A stretch of 7,567 nt of DNA from a virus (taxonomy: Duplodnaviria > Heunggongvirae > Uroviricota > Caudoviricetes): the IMG/VR virus record IMGVR_UViG_2690316028_000015; one strand, 5' to 3'. The stretch's first letter is position 1, and every line of letters starts with the position of its first letter. The position numbers and the translations under genes are program-made. Of the stretch, positions 1,659-7,567 are shown piece after piece. The notes beneath the pieces are model-generated. The model ran no database searches. It had not been told where the DNA came from and was given only the letters and a program-made list of their open reading frames with translations.

Positions 1659-4130
1659 TTAAGAATCAGCCTGACTCGGGATCAGTTTTTGCCAGATAAC
1701 TGAAACGTATTTTGCCTGGTAACGGGCGTCATCAAGTGCATTATGGCGCTCACCTTCGAATGGAATAGCCGTTCTGGCATCGAAGTCTATGGCTTTCCCC
1801 AGCTCAACGATTGTGCGTACATCGCGATCGTTGTAGTAACGCCACGGGCAGGGGATCCCCTGCCGTTCGTATGAACGGCGCAAAATCGTGTTGTCGAAGT
1901 TGGCTCCATTTCCCCAAACCTGAACAAAAAATTCACCGGAGTTTTCGTCGATAAATTCCCGCAATTGTAACAGTGCATCATCTAACGGGATTTCATCGGT
2001 CATAATGGCAGATTGCGCTTCGCGTGATTGCTTAAGCCACCATTTAATGGTGTTCCGATCAATGACTCCGCCAGCAGTTTCCAGATCGATAGTCTTACTA
2101 AATTCCGGTCCCATATCTCCGGTTTGCGGATCGAAAAATATTGCACCTATTGAGATGATCGGGGCATCAGGATTTTTTCCCATGGTTTCAAGGTCGATCA
2201 TTAGATGGTCACACGTCCTGCTGGTGGATGTGATTTCGTGATGACCGTTCACCTTAATTGAGTGATCTGCCGTCTCGCCAGTTTCATTATCGCTATTGTG
2301 ATGCTGATTGCCGCCAGTGTTCTCCTTGTGTGGATGTTCAGCGCCTTCCATTTCCTCCGGATCATCTTCCTGAACTTCAACCTGATATTCTTCATCGAAT
2401 GTTTCTTGATATGTTGCGTCGCCCATCACCGCGCCACAATCAGGGCAGTTGCCGCCGCCGGTCTGACCGCAGGCGGTGCAGACTTTTTCCACTTCCTGTT
2501 GCGCCACTGGTTCAGGCTGTTTCGTTTCTGGCTCGTTTTGTAACGCATTTGTGCTGTTTTGTTCCGCTTTTTGGTAGTTCCGTTCCGATTCATGCTGGTT
2601 CTGGTTCACAGAATCGCGGGTCTGGATCCCCTTAACCCATTTCGGATCATTCGGGTCACTAATCCCTTCAACAAATTCACCACGTGATGCAGCAAGCAAC
2701 TTATCGGCGTCAGGCTGGCTGATATTGGCTGCCTGCATAATTTTGTTTACTTCGTCAGCGGTAACTTTTATCGGCTCTGGTTGTTCTGAATCTTCAGCGG
2801 TATCTACATTTTGCGGTAAGCCCGTGTATGTGCCATTTTTTCGGGCAAAATATTCTTCTTTTGTGATTTCAGTGGCGCCAGCAGCCAGTGCCTTATCCAG
2901 ACCAGAAAGTTTGTTTGCGCGACCGTATTTTTCTCCGTCCTTATCTGCGAAGAGGAAATAGAACGGCCCCTCACGCTCTACAGATGGTTCAGCTTCCGGC
3001 GCGGTTTCATTTTTTGGGATATCAGATACCTCAGTTTCCACTGCATCAGTTTGTGTTTCTGATGACTGGAGAACATCAACAGTGCCCAGGTCTGTTTCTT
3101 CATTCTCAAACACGCCCTTTGTCGTCAGGTATTCGCAGATATATTTGTTCAGTGCTATGGGATCTTTGTGAATGTCGATCGGACGCTCACGGACAAGGCC
3201 AAAAATAGTCTGGCGGTCGTAGCGAAGGGCATCAGGCTGTTTGCGCATTGATGCCGAGATACGCTTCCAGTCTTCGCGGTCGTTGTCGATAACTTCTTTT
3301 TTTGCCCAGCGATGGATGCTGCCGTCAATGTTTCCGGCATCCACATCACTAGGCCAGAGAGCGTAGGCCAGTTCGTCATCCAGTGTTTTCCATGTCTGCT
3401 TGTATTCGCGATGAATGGCAGCAATGACCGGGCTGATTTTTCCTGTTGAATTTTCAGTGTACTGTTGATTGGCTCTGGCGCGGGCGAGATCAACAACAGA
3501 CGTGTATTTTCCGGTTTCCTTGCGTTCACCTTCGCGACGTTTTTTCCAGATGCGCATCTCTGCCTGAATTTCGGGCCATTTAGCACCAGGAATACATTTA
3601 TGCTTAACCCACCCAATGGCGTGCAACTTAAGCTCCGGATACATGGCGTTAACTTCTGGCATTTTCATCAACGCTTCAACGATATGTCCGTCGAATGTTG
3701 CCATGTCTTCCTGCAACAATTCCTGTGCGCTAATAACCATATCAACGGTGATGTTTTCACATGTGTCGAACTTAACCATGACAGCGTTCTGTACTTCAGG
3801 GGCCAGCTTGTCAAAAGTGACGTTCATCGGATCGGATTCAGTCTCAACCGGGACAAAAGAAGCAGACTCCTCATCCCAGCGGTTTTCCTGCATATATTCA
3901 GCATCCCATGAATCGAGGGCAGGGCGGGGTATGCCAGGTTTATCCTCGCAGACAATAAATTTATAAGCGCAGTCCTGAGCAGCCGGATAATGTTCCAGGA
4001 ACTGCCAGTGAAATTTTGCTCGAGCACGGCGTTCGTCGCCAGCTTCAATGGCTGTGGCTACAGCCACAGCGCCTTCTTCCCTTGTTGCCAGTTCGTCAGG
4101 AATAGCGGCGCAAATAAAGACTTTACTCAT
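1659..4130 (-). CDS. ydfE: Large prophage exonuclease: N-terminal region of unknown function, Cys4 zinc ribbon, acidic linker, C-terminal DEDDh (DnaQ/RNase T-like) 3'-5' exonuclease domain; counterpart of the K-12 ydfE pseudogene
   Basis: 823-aa ORF with GAGG 10 nt upstream of the ATG at 4128-4130. C-terminal motifs MIDLET (nt 2184-2201), VWGNGANFDNT and HNALDD (nt 1728-1745) are read directly. CTACGQTGGGNCPDCG lies at nt 2436-2480. Confidence 0.85.
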   Translation of the reverse strand: MSKVFICAAIPDELATREEGAVAVATAIEAGDERRARAKFHWQFLEHYPAAQDCAYKFIVCEDKPGIPRPALDSWDAEYMQENRWDEESASFVPVETESDPMNVTFDKLAPEVQNAVMVKFDTCENITVDMVISAQELLQEDMATFDGHIVEALMKMPEVNAMYPELKLHAIGWVKHKCIPGAKWPEIQAEMRIWKKRREGERKETGKYTSVVDLARARANQQYTENSTGKISPVIAAIHREYKQTWKTLDDELAYALWPSDVDAGNIDGSIHRWAKKEVIDNDREDWKRISASMRKQPDALRYDRQTIFGLVRERPIDIHKDPIALNKYICEYLTTKGVFENEETDLGTVDVLQSSETQTDAVETEVSDIPKNETAPEAEPSVEREGPFYFLFADKDGEKYGRANKLSGLDKALAAGATEITKEEYFARKNGTYTGLPQNVDTAEDSEQPEPIKVTADEVNKIMQAANISQPDADKLLAASRGEFVEGISDPNDPKWVKGIQTRDSVNQNQHESERNYQKAEQNSTNALQNEPETKQPEPVAQQEVEKVCTACGQTGGGNCPDCGAVMGDATYQETFDEEYQVEVQEDDPEEMEGAEHPHKENTGGNQHHNSDNETGETADHSIKVNGHHEITSTSRTCDHLMIDLETMGKNPDAPIISIGAIFFDPQTGDMGPEFSKTIDLETAGGVIDRNTIKWWLKQSREAQSAIMTDEIPLDDALLQLREFIDENSGEFFVQVWGNGANFDNTILRRSYERQGIPCPWRYYNDRDVRTIVELGKAIDFDARTAIPFEGERHNALDDARYQAKYVSVIWQKLIPSQADS
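1662..2213 (-). other. DEDDh exonuclease domain within the 823-aa protein (about residues 640-823)
   Basis: The three exonuclease motifs occur in the expected order and spacing: D-x-E in MIDLET, Asp in NFDNT, H-x4-D in HNALDD. Confidence 0.7.
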
Positions 4131-4223
4131 TTTGTTTTAACCTCATGACAGATTTAAGGATGAACAAATCCCTGCCATTGCTGGCATATAAGAATGAAAC
4201 CGGATATTTATTACGGAACTGTT

Positions 4224-4415
4224 TTAAAGACCTGCCGGGATTTCGATATTATCCTGGTGAATAACTTTATCGACCGGGTAACAGTTACCGGGAATTTTCT
4301 GTTCGGTTGCTGCAGTCATACACTCCTGCATTGTCCTGTGAACACTGACTGCAATATCAACTGGCTCTCCGGAAACAAGAAAAACTGTCAGAACAAGCGC
4401 AAATGCTGAATTCAT
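4224..4415 (-). CDS. ydfD: Small hydrophobic-N-terminus protein YdfD (reported as a lysis-inducing protein of Qin)
   Basis: 63-aa product MNSAFALVLTVFLVSGEPVD... from the internal ATG at 4413-4415. AAGGA lies 8 nt upstream and the ATG overlaps the dicB stop as ATGA. The longer 81-aa ORF call is rejected because its extra N-terminus is the dicB 3' end in another frame. Confidence 0.8.
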   Translation of the reverse strand: MNSAFALVLTVFLVSGEPVDIAVSVHRTMQECMTAATEQKIPGNCYPVDKVIHQDNIEIPAGL

Positions 4416-4600
4416 TGTGCACATCCTTTTGGCATCAGACGTAAACGAGCCAGCATTGAAACAATGCATATTTTATTTAATAGCTCCCGTTCTTGTTTTC
4501 TCTTGTTAATGGCATCTTCAGTAAATACAGGGTTACTGATAGTGACACCAATTTCAAAACAACCTTCAGACGTATTAACGTTTGGTAATAACGTTTTCAT
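4412..4600 (-). CDS. dicB: Cell division inhibitor DicB (small protein, MinC-dependent division block)
   Basis: 62-aa product MKTLLPNVNTSEGCFEIGV...MPKGCAQ from the ATG at 4598-4600, with GAGGA 7 nt upstream. The sequence matches my memory of K-12 DicB. The 97-aa ORF call has no RBS at its start. Confidence 0.85.
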   Translation of the reverse strand: MKTLLPNVNTSEGCFEIGVTISNPVFTEDAINKRKQERELLNKICIVSMLARLRLMPKGCAQ

Positions 4601-4769
4601 TATCGCGTCCTCAACAATGAATTTTGTGATGCAGTGCCTGGTGCCTCCAGGTGACGTTAACCAGTTAACAATTAACGCCGGATACAGAGAATCCACCCAT
4701 AACACTGTTTTTGGTTTTAACTGTTCCGCGTGCGCTTAGCCGCATTCACCGCATCACAAAATTCACTTT

Positions 4770-4827
4770 AAAAACGGCGGCAGAGCAGTCACGGAGTAAA
4801 ACTGATACCGCCAAACGTCACCAGAAA
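4770..4827 (-). ncRNA. dicF: DicF small regulatory RNA (Hfq-dependent, targets ftsZ and other mRNAs), including its 3' stem and U-tail
   Basis: The reverse complement of 4770-4827 reads TTTCTGGTGACGTTTGGCGGTATCAGTTTTACTCCGTGACTGCTCTGCCGCCGTTTTT. This matches the DicF sequence as I recall it, ends in a GC-rich stem plus T-run, and lies about 170 nt upstream of dicB. Confidence 0.75.
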
Positions 4828-5102
4828 ATTGATAACAGAGGGCGTTGCAGCGGGGTTGTCACTTAAGCGTATGGTCAACCTGACAACTCGGTGTCCTCAA
4901 CGGGGAAGGAATAACCCCGCCATACTTACCGCCGCGCCATTTCGCGGGTTGCCACAACCGGAAGCGCACGGTCGAATTAAATTTAACGACACCGTACAGT
5001 GAGACGAACTTCGCCGTGCGCTTTCGTGTTGTGTGCCTGCTTTTAACCACGTCAGGCGAGGTGGTATCCTTCTTATTCCGAATAACCAAGAAGGAAATCT
5101 AT

Positions 5103-5303
5103 ATGACTAAAGAAGAATTTGTCTCTTATATTTTTGATAAAACGGTTGAAATGTATGCCGCTACTTACGGGTCCTGTAATCCTCTGAATAAACCAGAGGG
5201 GAAAGATGATTTCGACAAAATTTACCGCTTCTTGGAGGACCGCTATATCAAAAGGTTAGAGGACGCAGGGATCAAATCCCCAGTGAAGTCACCATTGTCC
5301 TGA
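5103..5303 (+). CDS. Hypothetical small acidic protein (66 aa), antisense to the dicB operon; candidate moron
   Basis: ATG at 5103 with AAGGA 7 nt upstream. The product is a balanced charged sequence (MTKEEFVSYIFDKTVEMYAATYGS...), and the ORF is noticeably more AT-rich than the GC-rich region to its left. Its 3' end overlaps the convergent 5272-5637 ORF by 32 nt. Confidence 0.4.
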   Translation: MTKEEFVSYIFDKTVEMYAATYGSCNPLNKPEGKDDFDKIYRFLEDRYIKRLEDAGIKSPVKSPLS

Positions 5304-5637
5304 GAACTTGCAGGACGTCATGATCGTAACTTCCATCCAAACCGCGACGGCAAATTGCTTCTCGTATTACCGGAAGCAGTTCGCTGGAAATCTCGGTGCA
5401 TATTTCACCTGCTAATACGCCTGGCTCAAGTGAGAATATTGGTGAACTTACGGTCTTGGTCTCTACAGTTTCAGAGTCAGTGCCAACATTATAAAGCTCA
5501 ACGAAAGCGGTCTTGATTTTCCGGGCCAGATCTTTTGCTGGCTCGCTTGCAATATCTTTCCCGATTTCTCGCAGCACAGAATGCAATGTATGAGCTGCTG
5601 TTTTCTGTACATCAGACGGTAAATCTTTAAATTCCAT
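5272..5637 (-). CDS. Hypothetical acidic protein (121 aa) in the ydfB/ydfC position
   Basis: ATG at 5635-5637 is preceded by GAGG at 6 nt. An upstream in-frame ATG at 5647-5649 overlaps the ydfA stop as TGATG, so the start is ambiguous (121 or 125 aa). No recognisable motif. Confidence 0.6.
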   Translation of the reverse strand: MEFKDLPSDVQKTAAHTLHSVLREIGKDIASEPAKDLARKIKTAFVELYNVGTDSETVETKTVSSPIFSLEPGVLAGEICTEISSELLPVIREAICRRGLDGSYDHDVLQVLRTMVTSLGI

Positions 5638-5648
5638 CGTCAGCCTCA

Positions 5649-5801
5649 TCAGTCAGTGTTTCTGGCTAACCAGCAACGCGCGCCAGATTCGGTTTTAAAC
5701 GTTTTGCTTTTGGTATATGTCATCGCGGTGAACGTACCGTCCTGGTTGGGGAACACGCCACATACCAGAGATTCGCTGTTGCCAAGATCGATAGTATCCA
5801 T
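5649..5801 (-). CDS. ydfA: Small protein YdfA-like (50 aa), first gene of the leftward operon
   Basis: Internal ATG at 5799-5801 with GAGG 6 nt upstream. The 102-aa extension would begin upstream of the operator/promoter and is rejected. The product MDTIDLGNSESLVCGVFPNQDGTFTAMTYTK... has the size and position of K-12 YdfA. Confidence 0.65.
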   Translation of the reverse strand: MDTIDLGNSESLVCGVFPNQDGTFTAMTYTKSKTFKTESGARCWLARNTD

Positions 5802-5877
5802 GCTGACCTCATTTCCCCTTAACGCCGGGGTAGCGGAACTGTTTGCTGAGAACACCGTGCGGTGTGTTGATGGAGGT

Positions 5878-5930
5878 AATTTAGTTTTCTCATTATTTTT
5901 CGTCAAGGTTTTTTGATGAGAAAACTCAAG
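5878..5930 (-). promoter_or_regulatory. Leftward early promoter with two operator copies (OL/PL-like, PdicB equivalent)
   Basis: On the minus strand: -35 TTGACG (plus coordinates 5901-5906), 17-nt spacer, -10 TAAATT (5878-5883). Operator TGAGAAAACTCA at 5917-5928 and a one-mismatch copy TTAGTTTTCTCA at 5881-5892 overlap the -10/spacer. Confidence 0.55.
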
Positions 5931-5993
5931 TATTGGCGCAAGATAAAGCCAATACATTGAAATGTAAGGCTTTAAAATTTTGTGAAGGGATGA

Positions 5994-6401
5994 TTATTGA
6001 TGCTTGTTGCGTTTGCGAGCCTCTAATAGCTCGGTGAACAGGCGATTAAAATTCTCAACGCGGGCGCGGAGTTCGCTGAGTTGTGCTTGTTGCTCTGATT
6101 TAGGAAGTGCGCGATACAAACGCAGCATCTCTAACTCATCTTCCGATAAGTCTAAGGCACTATCGAGTGAAACAGGGGGAGCTGGTGTTTTGTCCTCGTC
6201 GCCAAACAGTATCCAGGTTGGTGAACATTGCAATACCTCGGCGAGGCGATGCAAATTTTGCCCACGCGGGGCTGTATGGTCACTTTCCCATAATGAAATT
6301 GATGAGCCAGATACGCCAGCAGCTTTGCTTAAACCGTTTTGACTTAAGCCTACCTGCTTACGTCTTTCTCTAATGCGTTGACCTAAAGTTTTCTCGTTCA
6401 T
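5994..6401 (-). CDS. dicA: DicA-family HTH (XRE/cI-like) repressor of the leftward operon
   Basis: 135-aa product from the ATG at 6399-6401, with an N-terminal HTH (LGQRIRERRKQVGLSQNGLSKAAGVSGSSISLWE) and the segment SPTWILFGDEDK that I recall from K-12 DicA. It lies between the two operator clusters. The 152-aa call adds 17 residues that run into the operator region. Confidence 0.85.
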   Translation of the reverse strand: MNEKTLGQRIRERRKQVGLSQNGLSKAAGVSGSSISLWESDHTAPRGQNLHRLAEVLQCSPTWILFGDEDKTPAPPVSLDSALDLSEDELEMLRLYRALPKSEQQAQLSELRARVENFNRLFTELLEARKRNKHQ

Positions 6402-6478
6402 ATTTAGATATCTTAATAACCCTTGACTTGAGATTCCTTGAGTGATTAGCATTGAGAAAACTCAATATTGGAGGTGCG
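6402..6478. promoter_or_regulatory. Divergent promoter/operator region between the repressor and the cro-like gene (OR-like)
   Basis: Perfect 14-bp palindrome TTGAGAAAACTCAA at 6452-6465 plus TTGAG-containing repeats at 6428 and 6438. Candidate rightward -35 TTGACT at 6423-6428, and GGAGGTG RBS at 6470-6476 for dicC. Confidence 0.55.
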
Positions 6479-6706
6479 ATGTTTAAATCAGACGTAATTA
6501 ATTTTTACGGTACGAAAGCCAAAGTAGCGAAAGCTGCTGGCGTTGACCCATCTGCTGTTTCTCAATGGCAAGAGCTGGTTCCTGAAGGTCGCGCGATGCG
6601 TCTACAGGAGGCATCTGGCGGCGAGCTTCTGTATGATCCCAAGGTTTATGACGAATATCGTAAGACGAAGCGGGCGGGGCGGTTGAACAATGAAAATCAC
6701 TCCTGA
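6479..6706 (+). CDS. dicC: Cro-like small HTH regulator (DicC/YdaS-type)
   Basis: 75-aa product from the ATG at 6479, with a strong GGAGGTG RBS. It is transcribed divergently from the repressor. The TTG start at 6452 in the ORF track lies inside the operator palindrome and is rejected. Confidence 0.8.
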   Translation: MFKSDVINFYGTKAKVAKAAGVDPSAVSQWQELVPEGRAMRLQEASGGELLYDPKVYDEYRKTKRAGRLNNENHS

Positions 6707-7091
6707 ACAGGCTCGTGAGGCTCTGGATGCCTGGATATGTCGACCAGGAATGACACAGGAGCAGGCGACGATATTAATCACTGAAGCATTCTGGGCTTTG
6801 AAAGAGCGCCCGAACATCGATGTTCAGCGTGTCACAGATGAAGGTGGCGCGGTTGATCAGCGAGCGCTTGGCGTTAATCGAGTGAAGATATTCGAACGCT
6901 GGAAGGCTATCGACACTAGGGATAAGCGTGAAAAGTTCACGGCGCTAGTGCCTGCAATTATGGAGGCTACAGCGAGATCCATTCTGGGTAAAAAACATCA
7001 TGAGCCCGTCAAAACTCCGCGAAAAATGGGACGAACTGGTCATCCGCTTGGGACGTTCACCTGTACAGCGTTGTGTGAATCATATTTCTGA
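6690..7091 (+). CDS. Hypothetical early-right protein in the cII/YdaT position (133 aa)
   Basis: ATG at 6690 overlaps the dicC 3' end by 17 nt. The position immediately after the cro-like gene is as in Rac ydaS-ydaT. No motif I can name. Confidence 0.6.
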   Translation: MKITPEQAREALDAWICRPGMTQEQATILITEAFWALKERPNIDVQRVTDEGGAVDQRALGVNRVKIFERWKAIDTRDKREKFTALVPAIMEATARSILGKKHHEPVKTPRKMGRTGHPLGTFTCTALCESYF

Positions 7092-7168
7092 ACCGGATAC
7101 AGAAATTCCGCCTGGTTTCAGGGGATAAGTGTTGATTTCAGGTCATGAGGTAATTTTAAGGAGGACTT

Positions 7169-7567
7169 GTGGCAAAAGTTTTTACACAGGAAGAGCGGGA
7201 AAAAATTAAAGAGCAGGTGGTCGAACTTGTGCGCCAGAGCGGTCGCGAGACATTACGACAGTTGGAAGCTAAAACAGGTGCGACAAGATATCTGATGAGC
7301 ATTCTTGCCAGAGAGCTGGTTGCCAGTGGTTATGTATACAACTCCGGCTACGGGTTATTCCCGTCTGAACAGGCACGAAAGGACTGGCAAAATGCCCGCA
7401 AAAAACTCTCTAGGGCGAAGGTGAAGAAACCCGCTGTGGTTGATCCGGACCTTATCTGGTCACTACCTGATGGAGAAATACGTCGCTACGACAGTCGTCT
7501 AAACATAATCTGTCGCGAGTGCCGGAAGAGCGAAGTTATGCAGCGCATACTGGCATTTTATCAGTGA
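7169..7567 (+). CDS. Hypothetical protein (132 aa), possible winged-helix DNA-binding protein; GTG start
   Basis: GTG at 7169 is preceded by AAGGAGGA at 7158-7165. Complete ORF ending with TGA at the window edge. Basic C-terminal half with a CRECRK motif. Confidence 0.6.
   Translation: MAKVFTQEEREKIKEQVVELVRQSGRETLRQLEAKTGATRYLMSILARELVASGYVYNSGYGLFPSEQARKDWQNARKKLSRAKVKKPAVVDPDLIWSLPDGEIRRYDSRLNIICRECRKSEVMQRILAFYQ

Follow-up and report, generated by a model that had tools for sequence, protein, structure and literature searches.

Among the closest described systems to the locus considered here are the YdaS/YdaT pairs of the prophages CP-933P and Rac. YdaT of CP-933P comprises a POU-like helix-turn-helix domain (residues 3-90), a hinge (residues 94-99) and a long helix, a6 (residues 100-124), which builds an antiparallel four-helix-bundle tetramer; the protein, which represents the equivalent of cII, recognizes an inverted repeat located where ydaS ends (PMC9986795). 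The truncated form YdaT(1-96) folds but is monomeric, and no binding to DNA could be detected for it (PMC9986795). YdaT of Rac also forms a tetramer through a6 and switches on the repressor gene from a PRE-like promoter; it is toxic when expressed, and lethal when derepressed (PMC11879457). It has been argued that the label of a toxin-antitoxin system, under which YdaS/YdaT became known, arose from the misinterpretation of a Cro/cII pair (PMC5917428), and the two proteins are treated as Cro and cII analogues in the CP-933P study as well (PMC9986795). A preliminary description of the DNA analyzed here had noted this reinterpretation of Rac ydaS-ydaT as cro- and cII-like regulators, in agreement with the published work (PMC5917428; PMC9986795; PMC11879457), and had proposed that a cro-like gene and an overlapping 133-aa open reading frame (ORF) form a similar pair.

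The window, i.e., the whole stretch of 7,567 nt that was analyzed (IMG/VR record IMGVR_UViG_2690316028_000015) and to which the coordinates refer, is the left arm, together with the immunity region, of a lambdoid E. coli prophage of the Qin type, because its gene content and the chromosomal site of near-identical contigs both match Qin. The left arm carries int, xis, an exonuclease gene, ydfD, dicB, the DicF RNA, dicA and dicC, with a DUF1391 (ydfA-like) gene left of dicA, and with the gene of the 823-aa exonuclease, xis and int further left. Two contigs with 100% and 99.99% identity to the window (L007 and L005, respectively) continue leftwards into rspB, rspA, ynfA, ynfB and speG, and the adjacency of the integrase to rspB-rspA-ynfA-ynfB-speG in these window-identical contigs is that of the chromosomal site of Qin in K-12. 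The Qin cell-division-inhibition module (DicF, dicB, ydfD) is intact in the window. The features relevant to the locus are as follows:

About 4224 to 4415, minus strand (that of DicF): ydfD, downstream of DicF
About 4412 to 4600, minus strand (that of DicF): dicB, downstream of DicF
4775 to 4826, minus strand: DicF small RNA (Rfam RF00039, 72.5 bits)
5994 to 6401, minus strand: dicA, CI-like repressor, 135 aa from the ATG at 6401 (NCBIfam DicA and Pfam HTH_3)
6423 to 6452, plus strand: candidate PR-like sigma-70 promoter for dicC, TTGACT-18 nt-TAGCAT (consensus scan, 9/12 matches)
6479 to 6706, plus strand: dicC, Cro-like regulator, 75 aa (NCBIfam DicC, Pfam P22_Cro, PHROG 409)
6690 to 6969, plus strand: codons 1-93 of a 173-codon YdaT-family (cII-like) gene, comprising most of the predicted POU-like helix-turn-helix domain
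6968 to 6969, no strand: deletion junction with a shared TA; 1,029 bp of intact relatives absent (blastn against the intact relative L001)
6970 to 7091, plus strand: last 40 codons of the 133-aa ORF, out-of-frame sequence from the 3' end of O
6970 to 7128, plus strand: remnant of the replication gene O, last 52 codons and stop in their own frame, collinear with L001 5010-5168
7169 to 7567, plus strand: DUF977/Ren-like gene, next in the operon (Pfam DUF977, E 8.6e-27; PHROG 142 'Ren-like exclusion protein', E 8e-44)

The repressor gene is delimited by its profile matches. The mechanically called dicA ORF extends to 6452 and encodes 152 aa, of which residues 18-152 score 238.8 bits with NCBIfam DicA (cut-off 101; Pfam HTH_3, E 2e-15), and RefSeq relatives are annotated with a 135-aa protein; the ATG at 6401 is probably the true start. 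The candidate PR-like promoter sits in the 77-nt spacer between dicA and dicC, and since the scan returned one site against 1.8 expected in shuffles, only its position speaks for it. At the right-hand end, the DUF977 gene encodes 132 aa in the window versus 140 aa in most relatives, and the last three nucleotides of the window (7565-7567) are its stop codon. In window-identical contigs (L003 11081-13593; L005 11081 onward) it is followed by QueH and then by a KwaA/KwaB (Kiwa defence) pair; in other carriers of the 1,029-bp deletion, a 495-aa or a 449-aa gene of no assigned family is found instead.

The frame of dicC begins with the ATG at 6479 and ends, after 75 codons, with the TGA at 6704-6706. 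Its product scores 165.3 bits with NCBIfam DicC (cut-off 130), covering residues 1-75 of 75, and 59.3 bits with Pfam P22_Cro (cut-off 30.2; PHROG 409, E 3.6e-27), which bears out the earlier designation of the gene as Cro-like and makes it a full-length member of the DicC/P22 Cro family. Its score with Pfam YdaS_toxin (PF15943) is 22.7 bits, below the cut-off of 30, and DicC is an analogue of YdaS, not a homologue or member of the YdaS family. The designation as a YdaS/YdaT-like pair holds for the downstream frame, which is homologous to YdaT, but not for DicC.

The 133-codon frame runs from the ATG at 6690 to the TGA at 7089-7091 and shares positions 6690-6706 with dicC, exactly the 17-nt overlap that had been reported for it. 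This overlap is not a product of chance, since intact relatives share it to the base, namely L001 (cro 3490-3717, YdaT-family gene 3701-4222) and phage HannyBb (cro-like gene 3790-4017, YdaT-family gene 4001-4522). It is also present in 74 of the 99 loci examined that have an intact 173-codon gene. Translational coupling from dicC to the ORF, as suggested earlier, would be compatible with the conserved overlap.

Beyond the overlap, the 133-aa ORF is a chimera of 93 YdaT-like codons and 40 out-of-frame codons of O. In tblastn searches against phage records, only its residues 1-93 were matched, with 100% identity, in HannyBb and mEp460_ev081, where the gene has 173 codons and is annotated as 'CII-like transcriptional activator'; the same residues are also 100% identical to a 173-aa 'toxin YdaT family protein' in RefSeq. 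In one intact E. coli genome a Cro/CI-family gene (75 aa) is followed by genes annotated as 'toxin YdaT family protein' (173 aa), as 'phage O protein family' (321 aa) and as DUF977 (140 aa), with overlaps of 17 and 20 nt between neighbours. The best matches of positions 5990-7567 in E. coli genomes fall into two pieces that span 2,604 bp, versus 1,575 in the window. With blastn, window positions 2990-6969 correspond to L001 1-3980 and positions 6965-7564 to L001 5005-5604, and from this two-piece mapping it follows that 1,029 bp are missing from the window. The parental sequences (a slash marks the break) are GGAGGCTA/TCCGG and TCGGGTA/CAGCGAG, which yield the junction GGAGGCTA/CAGCGAG of the window.

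The deletion takes out codons 94-173 of the cII-like gene, i.e., the C-terminal 80 residues, together with codons 1-269 of the 321-codon O, and joins codon 93 of the former to codon 270 of the latter. The cII-like gene and O are read in different frames, and past the junction the cII-like frame therefore stays open for 40 codons of the O 3' end before it meets a stop. The resulting tail (residues 94-133) is without homology to the YdaT family, and the same DNA in its own frame encodes the C-terminus of O. The preliminary description had taken the ORF for a complete homologue, a view which does not survive the restriction of the family match to residues 1-93; it had also made its interpretation depend on conservation of the frame in related prophages, in which the last 40 codons are not conserved.

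The other product of the deletion is the remnant of O, which has no start codon of its own upstream. Full-length O of the relatives matches PHROG 391 (E 2.7e-92) and contains, at L001 4531-4662 and within the deleted stretch, five origin-type iterons with a spacing of about 23 nt (TC..GGTCAAAATG..), which presumably constitute the phage origin. Since the deletion removed 269 of the 321 O codons as well as this origin, the prophage is replication-dead, with the cII-like gene as a pseudogene remnant. A separate observation concerns the C-terminus of O: a 42-aa ORF at 7000-7128 (plus strand) ends in EIPPGFRG, similar to the C-terminus of DnaT, and over its last 21 residues (..SEPDTEIPPGFRG) the O remnant matches the primosomal protein DnaT at its C-terminus (NCBIfam E 2.8e-4, far under the cut-off). 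This likeness may reflect a shared short motif contacting a host replication protein.

Membership of the ORF in the YdaT family becomes apparent primarily through its intact relatives. The similarity to YdaT or cII-like families anticipated in the preliminary description was found with PHROG 163 'CII-like transcriptional activator' (E 1.2e-23, residues 1-96 only) but not with Pfam YdaT_toxin (PF06254), where the ORF reaches 18.5 bits against a cut-off of 21, over residues 59-93 only. The intact 173-aa relative passes the same Pfam cut-off (26.1 versus 21 bits) and matches PHROG 163 with E 2.3e-40. Likewise, the 133-aa ORF alone matches the YdaT structures 3c4r and 8bt1 with E 0.014 and 0.036, respectively, and the profile of the subfamily matches 8bt1 with E 6e-17 and 3c4r with E 2e-16 across the helix-turn-helix domain. 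The ORF is a fragment of a YdaT family member. Only 65 representative clusters among 1.84 billion proteins make up this small subfamily. The full-length relative was modeled with AF2 at a mean pLDDT of 81.7, with values above 90 in the N-terminal domain and around 70 in the three C-terminal helices, and a Foldseek search with this model returned 8bt1 and 3c4r as the sole credible matches (probability 1.00; top chains 8bt1_C and 3c4r_C). The gene also has the expected position, directly 3' of a cro-like gene and 5' of a replication gene, of which the last 52 codons of O are left here.

The subfamily profile aligns to YdaT residues 3-101, and the alignment to YdaT ends at about residue 113. Residues 1-93 of the window ORF align to YdaT 3-86, such that the last few residues of the domain are replaced; because its residues 88-93 (PAIMEA) align to YdaT 81-86 (PAIEKA), the cut can be placed at the C-terminal border of the DNA-binding domain. 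It removes slightly more than the experimental truncation YdaT(1-96) does, the region aligning with or following the hinge and the long helix is deleted, and everything after residue 93 is replaced by out-of-frame O, leaving the ORF without the C-terminal long helix that YdaT requires for tetramerization and DNA binding (PMC9986795; PMC11879457). As YdaT(1-96) is monomeric and without DNA binding, the product of the window ORF is probably inert, i.e., a monomeric domain with a 40-residue nonsense tail, incapable of productive DNA binding or activation, and by the same analogy it is not expected to be toxic in the manner of full-length YdaT. To regard the C-terminal 80 residues of the subfamily as an oligomerization module would be an extrapolation from YdaT, since this part is longer than that of YdaT, is modeled with a pLDDT of about 70 and lies where the alignment to YdaT stops (about residue 113).

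The operator of YdaT offers a further point of comparison. The YdaT box TTGATT-N6-AATCAA, which is the CP-933P/Rac consensus, is not enriched in the window (five matches with up to three mismatches, versus 6.9 expected). The sole operator-like match near the expected place lies at 6683-6700, at the end of dicC and the start of the ORF (TTGAACAATGAAAATCAC, three mismatches), and is not significant by itself. The recognition helix differs from that of CP-933P/Rac YdaT, and the operator box may therefore differ too.

Taken together, these data lead to an account in which we have high confidence: an intact Qin-type operon suffered a 1,029-bp deletion, which created a chimeric ORF and left a decayed cII-like gene, probably without a working role as regulator or toxin. 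In the intact phage, a single rightward operon would be driven by a PR-like promoter under repression by DicA, and comprises dicC (the Cro analogue), the 173-aa YdaT-family gene (the cII analogue), O (the putative initiator, with the iterons inside) and the DUF977/Ren-like gene, the 17- and 20-nt gene overlaps being suited to translational coupling. The deletion then fused cII-like codon 93 to O codon 270, giving the 133-aa ORF, and removed the C-terminal 80 residues of the cII-like protein along with the origin and most of O. Transcription of the ORF is expected only once repression of the rightward promoter by DicA is lifted; upon derepression of dicC the remnant may still be translated via the conserved overlap, and its product would most likely be a monomeric DNA-binding domain with an unnatural tail that fails to activate a promoter for repressor establishment. 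With this, no question of lysis-lysogeny or toxicity is left open at the locus, and the finding is of a kind already known, namely a decayed copy of a characterized regulator gene. The retention of the start, of the overlap with dicC, of an open 133-codon frame and of an invariant N-terminal part of 93 residues could nevertheless indicate a residual function of the domain.

The point at which the cII-like gene is cut recurs in other alleles. Codon 93 (GGAGGCTA/TCCGG) is the nucleotide-precise endpoint of about 20 independent deletions, and is located at 6962-6974 of the window (GGAGGCTA/CAGCG), at L001 3973-3985, near 4360 in the K-12 locus (L011) and at L025 4001-4005. Among the about 56 clusters with a right-hand break, residue 93 is the last one in 16, which carry 14 different tails; residue 62 is the last one in six clusters, and residues 65 and 67 in three each. 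The residue after ...MEA always comes from an A-initial codon, which places the junction exactly after GCTA. Nine different sequences joined to GGAGGCTA/ were recovered at the DNA level, and all nine of these alleles are same-strand deletions of 1-6 kb. The two bases of the partner before the break are TA in all but one of the about 20 informative alleles, counted from DNA-level cases and from protein-level cases with a located right parent; T occupies position -2 in 10 of the 11 protein-level cases, versus about 25% expected. The codon-93 point also serves as the other endpoint, for instance in L025 (present in several complete genomes), which loses dicF-dicA-dicC and the N-terminal half of the gene, and in P0080. 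Several partner sites are reused, namely GAGCCTA/ACTGG (in O), CCGGCTA/CGGG (DUF977), CGGATA/CCGTGG (DUF968), CGACTA/CCGTC and CCGGATA/CAGAG (beside dicB). Among 30 such TA sites, G is enriched at positions -5 and -4 (p about 1e-6 versus 9,666 background TA sites); we claim no recognition motif from this enrichment, which may represent imperfect microhomology to GGCTA. Other deletions in the same loci use unrelated microhomologies.

Further breaks were observed in the same prophages. Sister contigs with the same cII-like/O deletion (L003 and L009) carry a 394-bp deletion in the ydfA region (window 5439-5830), with a TA-to-TA joint, and the sister contigs L004 and L006 carry a 2,917-bp TA-to-TA deletion from the exonuclease gene to dicB (window 1768-4681), which reuses the dicB-side endpoint of L025. 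A second, diffuse cluster of breaks at residues 62-67 (GGCGTTA/, CGAGTG/, AAGATA/) corresponds to about nucleotides 185-201 of the intact gene (L001 3885-3901, equivalent to window 6874-6890). In allele P0050 an IS629 end is inserted after residue 65, about 28 codons upstream of the codon-93 site, and P0047 joins two IS629 insertion sites.

A number of possible causes were considered for the codon-93 site. A recombinase with a palindromic TA core is expected to produce inversions, of which there are none among the nine DNA-level alleles. Type II topoisomerase subunit exchange with a 4-nt stagger does not fit products that keep the -3 base of the left parent and the +1 base of the right parent. 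Folding of the DNA within 60 nt on either side gave a z-score of -1.9 and a single 8-bp palindrome, ATCCGGAT, which does not make a convincing hairpin; the attL flank of the prophage is, by eye, unlike the hotspot, which argues against the prophage's own att site. A chimeric query of the left flank and the IS629 end found no IS629 at codon 93 in 5,426 complete genomes, and a pattern scan of IMG/VR for such an insertion returned only a synonymous variant of the intact gene. IS-linked events thus exist near codon 93 and are not demonstrated for the main site, for which none of the mechanisms examined accounts. End joining of the IS-excision-enhancer type after transposase cuts generates deletions that are anchored at the IS and show microhomology at the other end (PMC9943667), and joining of this type remains a candidate. 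A literature search for a described deletion hotspot yielded nothing relevant.

We tentatively propose, with somewhat less than even confidence, that Qin-type prophages contain a few G-rich sites with a terminal TA, chiefly GGAGGCTA/TCCGG, which are recurrent and nucleotide-precise endpoints of independent deletions. If so, a site-specific break or replication stall, followed by joining at terminal TA microhomology, would drive the decay of these prophages, and a nuclease, transposase-linked joining of the IS-excision-enhancer type or a protein roadblock would be candidate causes. To our knowledge, no such mechanism has been described for this locus. A true mutational hotspot at codon 93 would offer a natural and easily assayed system for the whittling-down of defective E. 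coli prophages.

The interpretation as a decayed gene has to be weighed against readings in which the junction does not exist or the product is of use. That the junction is an assembly artefact of a genome with intact genes could be suspected from its absence from 5,426 complete RefSeq E. coli genomes and from an exact-junction scan of one representative genome per species. Left-flank pattern scans of JGI metagenome data and of representative genomes gave only K-12-type alleles and chance matches. The exact 133-aa protein, however, is found on 16 contigs from independent samples, and a 98% variant is indexed in 42 collection blocks, of which 24 contigs were read and which include an NCBI contig of 4.83 Mb. 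Contigs from many independent samples and assemblers, up to 79 kb and 4.83 Mb in size, agree in junction and protein. The two variants differ at two residues of the tail and at none of the N-terminal 93 residues, and carriers of the deletion allele differ in what follows, with three different downstream modules. An artefact can practically be dismissed. Very unlikely, too, is a role of the 133-aa ORF as the complete and functional YdaT-like partner of dicC, either as a cII-like regulator or as a toxic element. Such a role would be in line with the conserved dicC overlap, the YdaT-like N-terminus and the toxicity of expressed Rac YdaT (PMC11879457), but it would have to be exerted by a protein whose residues 94-133 are out-of-frame O, which alone stays under the Pfam cut-off, and which has lost the region aligning with or after the YdaT hinge and tetramerization helix, when even YdaT(1-96) shows no DNA binding (PMC9986795). 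Moreover, since the prophage lacks O and the origin, there would be no lytic-lysogenic decision left in which it could take part.

An improbable, if less remote, explanation is that the N-terminal domain is kept because it is useful or harmless and the full-length protein harmful, such that cuts at codon 93 are selected loss-of-toxicity alleles or yield a weak competitor or decoy against related prophages. Many independent alleles that stop at a domain boundary could indeed reflect selection rather than only mutation: the 16 of about 56 truncation or fusion clusters that end at residue 93, at the domain boundary, include K-12 YdfX; full-length Rac YdaT is lethal when derepressed (PMC11879457); and every allele seen has kept the start, the overlap and the N-terminal 93 residues intact. 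This explanation does not, however, account for the nucleotide-level precision of the cuts, nor for the use of the same point as the other endpoint in alleles that lose the N-terminal half (L025, P0080). In addition, a domain without the helix cannot join or poison tetramers, and a monomeric domain of the kind of YdaT(1-96) shows no DNA binding (PMC9986795). The pattern may owe something to selection against a toxic full-length protein, but neither the single-nucleotide precision nor the two-way use of the site can be explained in this way. Decay by deletion thus remains the preferred reading of the locus.

In relation to known systems, dicC of the window conforms to the DicC/P22 Cro family without any difference found. 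The cII-like gene shares with ydaT of CP-933P and Rac (8bt1, 3c4r) its position after a cro-like gene and a homologous N-terminal POU-like domain, and would likewise be a functional analogue of lambda CII. [quoted passage not shown] Furthermore, the cro-like and cII-like genes overlap in the Qin-type locus, whereas in CP-933P a spacer between them holds the operator. The early right operon of lambda has the same order of a Cro analogue, a cII analogue and O with iterons inside; the genes of the window type, however, are not homologous in sequence to those of lambda CII or Cro, the cro-like and cII-like genes leave no room between them for nutR/tR1, and in the relatives examined the position of lambda P after O is occupied by the DUF977/Ren-like gene.

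The nearest counterpart is YdfX of the Qin prophage of K-12 (b1568, 96 aa), which is encoded by the same gene in the same place, starts 17 nt inside dicC, and has about 97% identity to the window ORF over residues 1-93, the cut at codon 93 following the same GGAGGCTA. The deletion partner differs: in K-12 it lies inside an integrase remnant (ydfW/intK), and the product ends in TTG, whereas in the window it is the 3' end of O. The position of K-12 ydfW/intK is occupied in intact relatives by an ORF of 446 aa (L073 5336-6676), at a distance of about 2.8 kb downstream from the cII-like gene; if this ORF encoded an integrase, it would suggest a second integrative element nested in the early right region of Qin-type prophages. 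K-12 ydfX itself gains an identity from this comparison, as the N-terminal DNA-binding domain of a YdaT/cII-like protein that is cut at its domain boundary.
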